Source: Clostridia bacterium (GTDB lineage Bacteria > Bacillota > Clostridia > TANB77 > CAG-508). Taken from it: a DNA stretch of 59,433 nucleotides. Of this stretch, positions 50,625 to 52,475 are shown piece after piece. The notes under the pieces were generated by a model that was not told the DNA's origin, did not search any database, and saw nothing but the letters and a program-made list of their open reading frames with translations. The stretch lies in the NCBI GenBank assembly GCA_900758165.1, contig CAAEQN010000136.1, positions 1-59,433 of the forward strand, written 5' to 3'. The first letter of the stretch is position 1, and the number at the start of each line of letters is the position of its first letter. The position numbers were made by a program, and so were the translations under genes.

Positions 50625-52475
50625 ATGCGGTATTCTCATGAAGTATCTTTAATTCTGAAAGAAATGAAGGAAATAGCGTGCAGATACGACAATCCCGAAA
50701 TCACTGAAATTTGTGTGTTTACGGCGTTGTATGATGGAGTAGAGTGGTTTAAAAAACAAGTGAATGAAGCAGCTCCGGAATATATGCTGGATGATCTAAT
50801 TTTAGATCTTTTGGAAGAACATGCAGTAGAAGGACAGCAACCATCGGAAGACATTGATTATAGTCAAGAAGTAGAAAATATTTTTTGCTATGCTGAACTT
50901 ATGGCAAAAGAAGAACAACATACTGAAGTGAGCCTTGAGCATTTAGTTTTTTCTCTCTTGATGAATGGCTCAAGTGAGTTTAAGAGTTTTATTGCCACAG
51001 CAAAAATCAATGTGGAGAAAATTACAATGAATCTTCTTGGAAAAGAAGAACAAAGGGAAGACAATGAGATTGGCGTAAACAGCATTTTTGAAATTCCAAG
51101 CTCAATTTCAAGTTTTGTTACTGTTTTGAACACAAAACGTGGAATTGGAAAAGAGTGTGCCATTAGTGGTAGAGAAAAAGAGCTTGACAAGATTTGGAAC
51201 ATTATGCTTAAAAAAACTAAACGTAATGTAATACTTCTTGGTGAAGCTGGAGTTGGAAAGTCATCAATAGTTTATAAACTTGCAAGTAGCATTGTTACAG
51301 GGGATTGCCCGGAGACATTTAAGAATGCAGTGGTTATATCTCTTGATGTAAATGCAATTATTGCAGGAACCAAATTCAGAGGAGATGCAGAACAGAGATT
51401 CAAAGAATTCATTGACTTTATTGAAGAAAATGAAGACGTAATTGTCTTTATAGACGAAATCCATATGATTATCGGAGCTGGAGGTTCTGAAGGAAATAAA
51501 ACTGGTGACCTTGCAAACACTCTGAAACCCCTTTTGGCTAGTGATAATTCTAGAATTATCGGTGCTACTACAACAGAAGAATATGAAAAGTATTTTTCTG
51601 AAGATGGGGCATTAAGACGTAGGTTCCAGACTATTGTTGTTAAGGAACCTAAAACCACAGAAGTCTACGATATGCTTAAAGATACTATTAAGCAATTGGA
51701 AAGCTTCCATGGTGTCAGCATTTCGAAAGAAATGGTAGATTTTATTATTCTTCAATCCTCGTGTTTCAATTATGAAACCAGGAATCCTGACAGAACCAAA
51801 GATCTTATTGATCTGGCAATGGCTACAGCTAGAAGAACTGGCAAAAAAGAAGTTGACGAAAGCTCTGTTACGAAAAATTTCGATATGCATATTGAAAAAT
51901 TTCATAACATGCCAAAAGACTCTCTTATGGCTACTGCTTACCACGAAGCAGGTCATTATGTAATGCATGTAATGTCCGGCAGACTGGTAGATTTCAAAAC
52001 TATAGCAGTATCCATTATACCTACTGAAAACTATATGGGAGTAAATGTACTTGATAATACAGATATTCCCGTCATTAGCGATATGAACTATTTTATAGAT
52101 TATATTGCTAGCATGTTGGCAGGTAGAGTTGCTGAAAGCTTGTATACCGGTTACTACAACGCTGGTGCTAGAGATGATTTGAGAAAAGCTACTGAGCAAG
52201 CTTACAATGTTGTCACAAAATATGGCATGGGAAATGGAGTATGCAAAAATTATGCATATTTTCAAGAAATGAAGAATGAAAGAATCACTGATGCTATTAA
52301 TGTAGAAGTTGATTCAATTATTCGTAAAGCGTATCAAAGAGCTGAAGAAGTTCTTAAAACAAACAGACCGCTTCTTGAAGAAATTGCAAAGCAACTTTGC
52401 CAAAAAGGTATTTTGCGTTGTGAAGAACTTGAAAAAATGGTTCTTAAATTTCAGGAAGAAGAGGCTTTTGCCTAA
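50625..52475 (+). CDS. Soluble fusion protease: Clp_N repeat plus ClpC/ClpB-type AAA+ D1 module plus FtsH-type M41 zinc peptidase
   Basis: Clp_N-like N-terminus. [33 protein letters not shown] (Walker A), [15 protein letters not shown] (Walker B), [25 protein letters not shown]. The C-terminal [13 protein letters not shown]...LAGRVAESL...[23 protein letters not shown] parallels the native FtsH. No transmembrane segment is visible. Confidence 0.85.
   Translation: [616 protein letters not shown]

Follow-up and report, generated by a model that had tools for sequence, protein, structure and literature searches.

How has a bacterial gene come to join the N-terminal parts of an Hsp100 ATPase to the peptidase of FtsH, and what would such a protein do? 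The question is raised by an open reading frame (ORF) at 50625–52475 on the forward strand of the window, by which we mean the whole stretch of 59,433 nucleotides analyzed here (contig CAAEQN010000136.1, from a Clostridia bacterium). The ORF is the coding sequence (CDS) of a 616-residue soluble fusion protein, hereafter X, consisting of a Clp_N-like domain, a D1-type AAA+ module and an M41 peptidase. The textbook AAA+ proteases of bacteria are ClpXP, ClpAP/CP, HslUV, Lon and FtsH; FtsH is defined as membrane-anchored, and the Hsp100 ATPases are defined as needing ClpP in order to degrade. The X family breaks both definitions, since a Clp N-domain and D1 are joined to M41 in a soluble protein. 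As judged from its sequence, X is probably an autonomous cytosolic AAA+ zinc protease that combines parts of FtsH and of Hsp100.

The boundaries of the ORF are exact, with an ATG start followed by CGG as codon 2. The initial annotation, made from the sequence alone, had recognized the three modules, and profile searches with Pfam bore this out. The N-domain (residues 1–145; 50625–51059, like all parts of X on the forward strand) was delineated as Clp_N-like, with two four-helix repeats, from Pfam, an AlphaFold2 (AF2) model and collinearity with the N-terminal domain (NTD) of ClpC. The Pfam Clp_N match itself covers residues 90–134, scores 25.3 bits against a cut-off of 20.7, and detects a single repeat. 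The large subdomain of the D1-type AAA+ module (residues 179–342; 51159–51650), in which Pfam AAA matches residues 202–338 with E = 5.5 × 10−14, carries Walker A at G206–S213, Walker B at D277/E278, a pore loop, T249-K-F-R-G253, and the arginine fingers R332/R333. It is followed by an AAA_lid_9 small subdomain of the Hsp100 D1 type (residues 343–428; 51651–51908; Pfam match 346–425), lacking the coiled-coil M-domain insertion, and by the Peptidase_M41 domain (residues 429–616; 51909–52472), where PF01434 matches residues 434–604 with 95 bits and E = 6.5 × 10−27 (cut-off 29.9) and where H440-E-A-G-H444 is complemented by D518 as the third zinc ligand. All six motif strings earlier quoted for X are present, at residues 182, 272, 311, 437, 497 and 514, as are the three quoted for FtsH, in the ORF at 16206–18038.

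X is far from the equivalog level of either parent family. In the NCBIfam models of ClpA and ClpB, it is the N-domain and D1 that align with residues 7–436 of X, at 241 bits (cut-off 993) and 233 bits (cut-off 1232), respectively, and FtsH_fam (TIGR01241) matches residues 268–601 with 93 bits against a cut-off of 600. The best sequence match in the PDB is Staphylococcus aureus ClpC (6em8), over ClpC residues 55–436 with E = 6 × 10−55. FtsH chains in the PDB match at E ≈ 10−15 or weaker, some of them collinear with X over AAA+ and M41 (≈199–606) and others over the M41 part only. The missing membrane anchor and the missing second ATPase ring, both claimed earlier, were confirmed. A 19-residue Kyte–Doolittle scan found no transmembrane segment in X, the highest mean being 1.18 and no segment reaching 1.6, compared to 2.88 in the window's true FtsH, and X has one Walker A only and no second ATPase module. 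No ClpP-docking (I/L/V)G(F/L) tripeptide was found in X, and the Pfam FtsH_ext domain, which does match the window's FtsH, has no match in it. The fusion is not an assembly artefact: assemblies from ENA, Logan, NCBI and JGI, independent of one another, contain the same gene. Since X is just 25% identical to the window's own FtsH, neither is it a recent local recombinant of the host gene.

The AF2 model of X, built on 42 homologs, had a mean predicted local distance difference test (pLDDT) score of 80.5. It places eight helices in residues 5–144 of the N-domain (pLDDT ≈ 85–90), after which come the alpha/beta fold of the ATPase and then the lid and the M41 domain, both helical. The double Clp_N repeat read from the sequence earlier thus reappears as two four-helix repeats in the model, while Pfam finds one repeat and the sequence match is weak. 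In a Foldseek search of the PDB, the N-domain and D1 resembled ClpC, Hsp104, ClpB and ClpA, and the AAA+ and M41 part aligned with the cytosolic FtsH structures 2ce7 and 3kds over ≈460 columns, with target-normalized TM-scores of 0.51–0.56. No PDB chain spanning the whole of X was found by Foldseek, and full-text searches of the literature turned up no account of a Clp_N/D1/M41 protein, in agreement with the earlier remark that no characterized protein has this layout.

As a sequence, however, X is not unusual. A word-indexed protein search returned one cluster at 98% identity and then more than 100 clusters of 620–650 residues at 42–54% identity, all of which carry AAA, AAA_lid_9 and M41. An exhaustive search at the 50%-identity level found HExGH together with a length of at least 520 residues in 95 of the 147 top representatives, with identities down to ≈30%; the family thus comprises at least 95 clusters at 50% identity that share the soluble D1–M41 core. 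The maximum 19-residue hydropathy is below ≈2 in nearly all of these 95, again compared to 2.88 for the window's FtsH, and the amino-acid composition of all of them indicates low-GC hosts. Wherever a canonical Walker A is present, it is separated from HExGH by a fixed spacing of ≈234 residues. The relatives are labeled “hypothetical protein” (Clostridium sp. metagenome-assembled genome) or “ClpA” (IMG) in the databases, and a single-protein scan of genome contigs with X yielded one real relative (locus L001; the loci compared are given by such L numbers) and three plain Clp D1 matches. Thus, the same domain order occurs in no characterized protein that we found, yet it defines a large, diverse and uncharacterized family of low-GC, largely gut, bacteria. 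A 923-residue variant (P0024, L108 7001–9772) has two tandem D1-type AAA+ modules before M41, with Walker A at residues 234 and 498 and HETGH at 731.

The ATPase and zinc-site residues of X are all intact and conserved. Across the 42 close homologs, K212, D277, E278, R332 and R333 are invariant, as are H440, E441, H444 and D518; in divergent sets of 74 and 103 members, K212, H440, H444 and D518 are still invariant and E441 is nearly so. The pore-loop aromatic is F251 in X and Tyr in most relatives. Among the 74 divergent members, Pfam detected M41 in all 74, AAA in 69, AAA_lid_9 in 61 and Clp_N in two. The mean identity of the 42 closer homologs to X is 60% in D1, 63% in the lid, 48% in M41 and 22% in the N-domain, which is the fastest-evolving part of the protein.

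Catalytically dead FtsH-like proteins exist, FtsHi and Ycf2 among them, and X could be mainly an unfoldase, disaggregase or regulator in which M41 serves chiefly as a hexamerization platform. The D1 of X does resemble those of the disaggregases ClpB, ClpG and ClpK, and HExGH is missing in some family representatives (P0305, P0338, P0340, P0348, P0353, P0362 and P0411), which are possible pseudo-proteases. However, X and its 42 close homologs all keep HExxH and the Asp ligand, and the zinc ligands remain invariant in the divergent sets. This conservation of the zinc site across the family argues for selection on catalysis, and we consider a non-proteolytic X very unlikely.

If X is a protease, six subunits would assemble into two stacked rings, one of D1 and one of M41, by analogy with the cytosolic portion of FtsH. 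Substrates or partners would be selected by the variable N-domains, the pore-loop residue F251 would draw the unfolded polypeptide through the ring and into the M41 chamber, and cleavage would take place there, so that ClpP would not be needed. Several points weigh against this scheme. The hexamer and the stacking of its rings are extrapolated from FtsH and Hsp100. The N-domain is very divergent: although the region is collinear with the ClpC NTD, the isolated domain matches that NTD at E ≈ 0.1 only, and Clp-like recognition may therefore not apply to X. The initial annotation had proposed Clp-type substrate or adaptor recognition, which is not established, considering the low identity of the N-domain, the rarity of Clp_N matches, the lack of conservation of the phospho-arginine (pArg) glutamates and the missing M-domain. 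Between the ribosome-binding site and the ATG of X there are 16 nt, a spacing longer than optimal. Finally, besides the representatives without HExGH, a divergent subgroup of ≈535 residues (P0394, P0398–P0405 and P0413) has kept HExGH and lacks a canonical Walker A, so that not all family members have proteolytic or ATPase activity. If active, X would be a further type of self-contained cytosolic protease in gut Clostridia, a natural experiment on the coupling of an Hsp100 D1 motor to a peptidase other than ClpP, and a soluble, tractable model for the mechanism of M41 proteases.

How did the gene come to lie at this position? X is preceded by uvrA (47564–50392; NCBIfam UvrA, 1550 bits, above cut-off) and followed by mgtA, encoding a Mg2+ P-type ATPase (52649–55249; TIGR01524, 945 bits, above cut-off), then by cmk (55276–55983) and murD; uvrA, mgtA and cmk are likewise on the forward strand. 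The initial annotation had described a cassette inserted at a uvrA–mgtA junction between two core genes. When relatives were compared, the conserved junction proved to be uvrA|cmk instead, since sister taxa keep these two genes around a differing or empty slot. The uvrA–cmk–murD order is kept in L100, L101 and L103. In a sister taxon with 89% identical UvrA, uvrA is followed after an 18-bp gap by cmk–murD; in another (UvrA 92% identical) a sigma-70-like (sigma-70_r2) gene lies between uvrA and cmk, and in a third (85%) an AAA_28 gene with a G+C content at third codon positions (GC3) of 0.35. By locus, L101/L102 have nothing in the slot, whereas L100 and L103/L104 have other genes there; the coordinates of the slot are 50393–55290 in the window, 10833–12157 in L100, 10836–10853 in L101 and 10830–12646 in L103. 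Thus, uvrA|cmk is a variable slot, filled here by X and mgtA. We had also considered mgtA as a synteny anchor, and rejected it: 80 metagenomic loci encode MgtA with 60–75% identity and none of them has uvrA, X or cmk, from which it follows that mgtA too is an accessory gene; UvrA served as the anchor instead. A promoter-like site of its own precedes mgtA (52530–52558), and the codon usage of the gene is native-like. Acquisition of X at this locus, as first proposed, is upheld by the sister taxon with the empty slot, while the role of mgtA as a core flank is not. X was present in all eight contexts shown that carry an identical UvrA; the gene is fixed within the species and absent from the uvrA|cmk slot in sister taxa.

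A variable slot raises the possibility of a recent lateral arrival, a line of thought already present in the initial annotation, in which case the codon usage of X would be the unameliorated signature of a GC-richer donor. Besides the state of the slot in the sister taxa, the identity of X falls from 98% to 54% at the next relative, whereas UvrA relatives at 85–92% are abundant. The codon shift itself, which the initial annotation had called a different dialect, is real. The GC3 of X is 0.269, compared to 0.115–0.20 in 42 of the 43 other genes of the window, and both C and G are raised at third positions. ATA makes up 0.15 of the Ile codons in X and 0.64 in the rest of the window, TTA makes up 0.09 and 0.61 of the Leu codons, and CTT makes up 0.53 and 0.14. 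The share of GAA among Glu codons, on the other hand, is 0.85 in both. Because GAA/GAG usage is unchanged, the deviation is not a plain shift in GC. Moreover, no recombinase or integrase gene was found, and no flanking repeats, direct repeats included, or att sites were found around X or around X and mgtA together.

Further evidence on the age of the shift comes from orthologs at another locus. In L006, L009 and L112, the X ortholog belongs to a common block, X–comEA–dacB–lytR–cvpA–DUF5711, and deviates from its host in the same way, with ATA at 0.03–0.06 of the Ile codons and a third-position A content (A3) of 0.26–0.32 compared to ≈0.5. The background codon usage of the L006 and L009 hosts, the two computed, correlates with that of the window with r = 0.98–0.99. 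Between these lineages, X is 49–60% identical and its neighbors are 46–71% identical, and L009 and L112 are the closest pair for X and for five of the six neighbors, comEA being the exception. By these comparisons, the comEA-linked orthologs are vertically descended, with a maintained codon bias. At such a divergence of X a donor signature should have decayed, and X shows the same branching order as its neighbors. Since the deviation persists in vertically inherited orthologs, codon bias cannot date a transfer, and the dialect fails as a sign of recent arrival. The shift is not equally strong in all lineages: L001 and L108 lack it, L110 has it to a moderate degree, and L106 shows it in extreme form. 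In L106, the GC3 of X is 0.53 over a background of ≈0.2, which looks truly foreign and suggests a recent arrival there. For X of the window, we regard a recent arrival carrying a donor's codon usage as doubtful.

Other causes of the bias were considered and set aside. The direction of the shift resembles the optimal codons of Firmicutes, with A-ending codons avoided, T- and C-ending codons preferred and GAA kept; translational selection was rejected, however, as GroEL (L049), DnaK (L110) and the window's FtsH are unshifted. A switch of strand was rejected because minus-strand genes of the window have a low A3 but a normal GC3 and TTA use. A3 in the window is 0.33–0.38 on the minus strand and 0.47–0.61 on the plus strand, and the plus-strand X is minus-like, at 0.33. 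An antisense gene was rejected by reasoning, as it would leave the avoidance of ATA unexplained. The only other codon outlier in the window is a 478-residue beta-CASP/MBL/RMMBL gene at 24245–25681 on the minus strand (GC3 0.27, ATA/Ile 0.20, TTA/Leu 0.11), for which the nearest NCBIfam models are aCPSF1 and a Cas14-type model, with scores below the cut-offs. Its orthologs in L079 (8470–9888) and L080 (18715–20139) are also codon outliers relative to their neighbors. That so deviant a codon usage should outlast a long vertical inheritance in genomes of extreme A+T content, and should recur in a beta-CASP nuclease family, is a testable puzzle.

Within the slot, X is supported as a self-contained transcription unit with a sigma-A-type extended −10 promoter, consistent with the promoter and terminator originally assigned to it. 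At 50467–50495 on the forward strand there is a promoter-like site that reads TTGCAA-N17-TATTAT and carries an upstream TG. The promoter scan alone is not significant in so AT-rich a window (21 sites, compared to 11.8 ± 3.3 in shuffles). The same layout, however, recurs upstream of the orthologs in L112 and L110, and TTGCAA/TTGACA-N17-TGnTATAAT precedes those in L006, L009, L106 and L108, making six other lineages altogether. Downstream of X there is an intrinsic terminator (52486–52529, forward strand) with a perfect 14-bp stem, a 6-nt loop and a T-rich tail, the stem and its T-run occupying 52486–52519.

The leader of ≈130 nt (50496–50624, forward strand) contains a hairpin at 50517–50540 and the ribosome-binding site GAAAGGAG at 50601–50608, and its predicted RNA fold has a free energy of −25.9 kcal/mol (z = −2.98). 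Hairpins with different stem sequences are found at the corresponding leader position in L112 (about 600–760) and L110 (about 6880–7000), and a GTATAC or hairpin leader after the promoter is common to the window, L112 and L110. Leaders of orthologs at other loci are only ≈40 nt long. The hairpin may be an attenuator or a stabilizing element; a search of the X leader against Rfam gave no match. Nothing convincing was found upstream of X in seven lineages when CtsR, CIRCE, LexA and sporulation-sigma motifs were sought.

What, then, is the protein for? The genes next to family members, seen in ≈7 independent contexts, hint at a link to DNA repair or nucleic-acid metabolism. In L110/L111, a uvrA that is 98% identical in protein and 90% identical in DNA to that of the window is found in other surroundings, with dnaK–dnaJ upstream instead of tk and dcd, and with PAP2–mntP downstream. 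The similarity covers the uvrA CDS exactly and goes no further, in a comparison of L110 3915–8896 and L111 1217–6198 with 47564–52475 of the window. The gene directly 3′ of this uvrA is again a family member, of another sub-branch and 46% identical to X. Either uvrA moves as a unit, or its 3′ flank repeatedly captures X genes. In L106/L107, X lies between a UvrD/AAA_11/AAA_12 helicase gene and pcrA; in L108/L109, ogg and addB lie upstream of the family member (P0024) and a UDG-like gene immediately downstream. In L001, the X ortholog divergently adjoins a beta-CASP nuclease gene (5887–7350, minus strand), a 47%-identical ortholog of the codon outlier at 24245–25681 of the window, and in the three comEA-linked lineages X adjoins the gene for the DNA-binding ComEA. 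The upstream flank of the comEA-linked X is variable, as a tRNA-Met gene lies ≈110 bp upstream of it in L009 (6582–6657) and a divergent sigma-factor gene is found there in L006. A gene for the ClpC adaptor MecA is found ≈4.5 kb from the X ortholog in L106 (13591–14229, minus strand).

Adjacency to repair genes would be explained if X were a protease acting on proteins stuck on DNA, such as crosslinked proteins or a stalled UvrA, helicase or polymerase, in partnership with nucleotide-excision repair. Besides these neighbors, no terminator was detected between uvrA and X. In its strongest form, this reading would make the X family a dedicated repair-coupled AAA+ metalloprotease that clears trapped proteins and stalled repair complexes so that UvrABC and PcrA can act, the bacterial counterpart of a eukaryotic partnership between an unfoldase and a DNA–protein-crosslink protease; it would account for two divergent X alleles directly 3′ of near-identical uvrA genes, and for the members next to UvrD/PcrA helicase, addB/ogg/UDG and beta-CASP nuclease genes. 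However, the ≈7 contexts have no statistical control, domain search detected no DNA-binding domain in X, and there is no LexA box near uvrA or X, motif matches being as frequent there as chance predicts. Sister taxa have the same uvrA but no X in the slot behind it, and the 3′ flank of uvrA is perhaps a mere insertion hotspot, given that it also takes sigma-like and AAA_28 genes. We therefore consider a repair-linked role for X unlikely, and the dedicated repair-coupled family with its eukaryotic parallel about equally so.

The initial annotation had also suggested an anti-phage effector; X would then destroy host or phage proteins upon infection, possibly as an abortive-infection system. The variable slot and the fast diversification of the N-domain would suit such a role, and in two lineages the surroundings would as well: the L001 ortholog has an IbrA/IbrB-like pair, an AAA_14 ATPase and a DnaB_C-like protein in its vicinity, and that of L009 has an N6 methyltransferase. 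Yet PADLOC-DB 2.0 gave only a generic AAA match (IetA, E = 10−5, 23 bits), searches of IMG/VR viral contigs and of phage genomes yielded no family member, and no collinear copies were found on plasmids. The neighborhoods are mostly housekeeping, X is stably inherited at the comEA locus, and it is fixed in the species. The suggestion thus found no backing, and an anti-phage function is extremely improbable.

The reading of X as an autonomous AAA+ zinc protease remains to be placed among known systems. Like FtsH, X unites in a single chain one AAA+ module of the classic clade and, C-terminal to it, an M41 zinc peptidase that has HExxH plus an Asp ligand; residues 194–605 are collinear with FtsH 204–607 over AAA+ and M41, and the predicted arrangement of the two domains superposes on the FtsH crystal structures. 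FtsH (MEROPS M41, which also includes the mitochondrial i-AAA and m-AAA proteases) is membrane-anchored by definition (2022 FtsH review). X, in contrast, has neither transmembrane helices nor FtsH_ext, its ATPase is of the Hsp100 D1 type, with AAA_lid_9 rather than AAA_lid_3, and its pore loop is of the Clp K(Y/F)RG type.

Like the class I Hsp100/Clp ATPases (ClpC, ClpA, ClpB and ClpE), X has an N-domain and D1, collinear with ClpC 55–436, and it has conserved the Walker A and B motifs, pore loop, double arginine finger and NPDR..DL.D lid motif of an Hsp100 D1. Unlike these ATPases, it lacks a D2 ring, and consequently the ClpP-binding loop that ClpA, ClpC and ClpE carry, and its peptidase belongs to the same chain as the ATPase instead of being a recruited partner. 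In ClpC, the coiled-coil M-domain is the site of MecA binding and of resting-state control, and two phospho-arginine pockets involve T7, E32 and E106 (PMC12583610). X has no M-domain, and no insertion between the lid and M41. The pArg glutamates are present in X itself (E28 and E105), but the corresponding family columns contain L/S/T and Y/E/D/P.

The transmissible heat-resistance islands offer a further parallel, as ClpG/ClpK and FtsH occur there together as accessory, horizontally mobile genes, the former being an Hsp100-type ATPase with a Clp N-domain. These are, however, two full-length proteins, encoded in the order ftsH then clp and non-collinear with X, and the X neighborhoods lack the stress genes typical of such islands. 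An apparent “split” X on alphaproteobacterial plasmids (88% of the query in 2.3 kb) was rejected on the same grounds, being ftsH followed by clpG/K and not collinear. In one case (L105, Paracoccus yeei plasmid NZ_CP020447.2, 5753–10544), ftsH is directly followed by the gene for a 964-residue ClpG/K-like AAA ATPase, in an island that also contains three sHsp20 genes, YfdX, PsiE, HdeD, a ClpP-like gene and TrxC.

Lon has an ATPase of the HCLR clade and a Ser–Lys S16 peptidase, and the homology of X to it is limited to the P-loop. In concept, Lon (LonA and LonB) is nevertheless the closest working analogue of X: an AAA+ protease in which homo-oligomers of a single chain recognize substrates through an N-terminal domain and degrade them without a separate peptidase.

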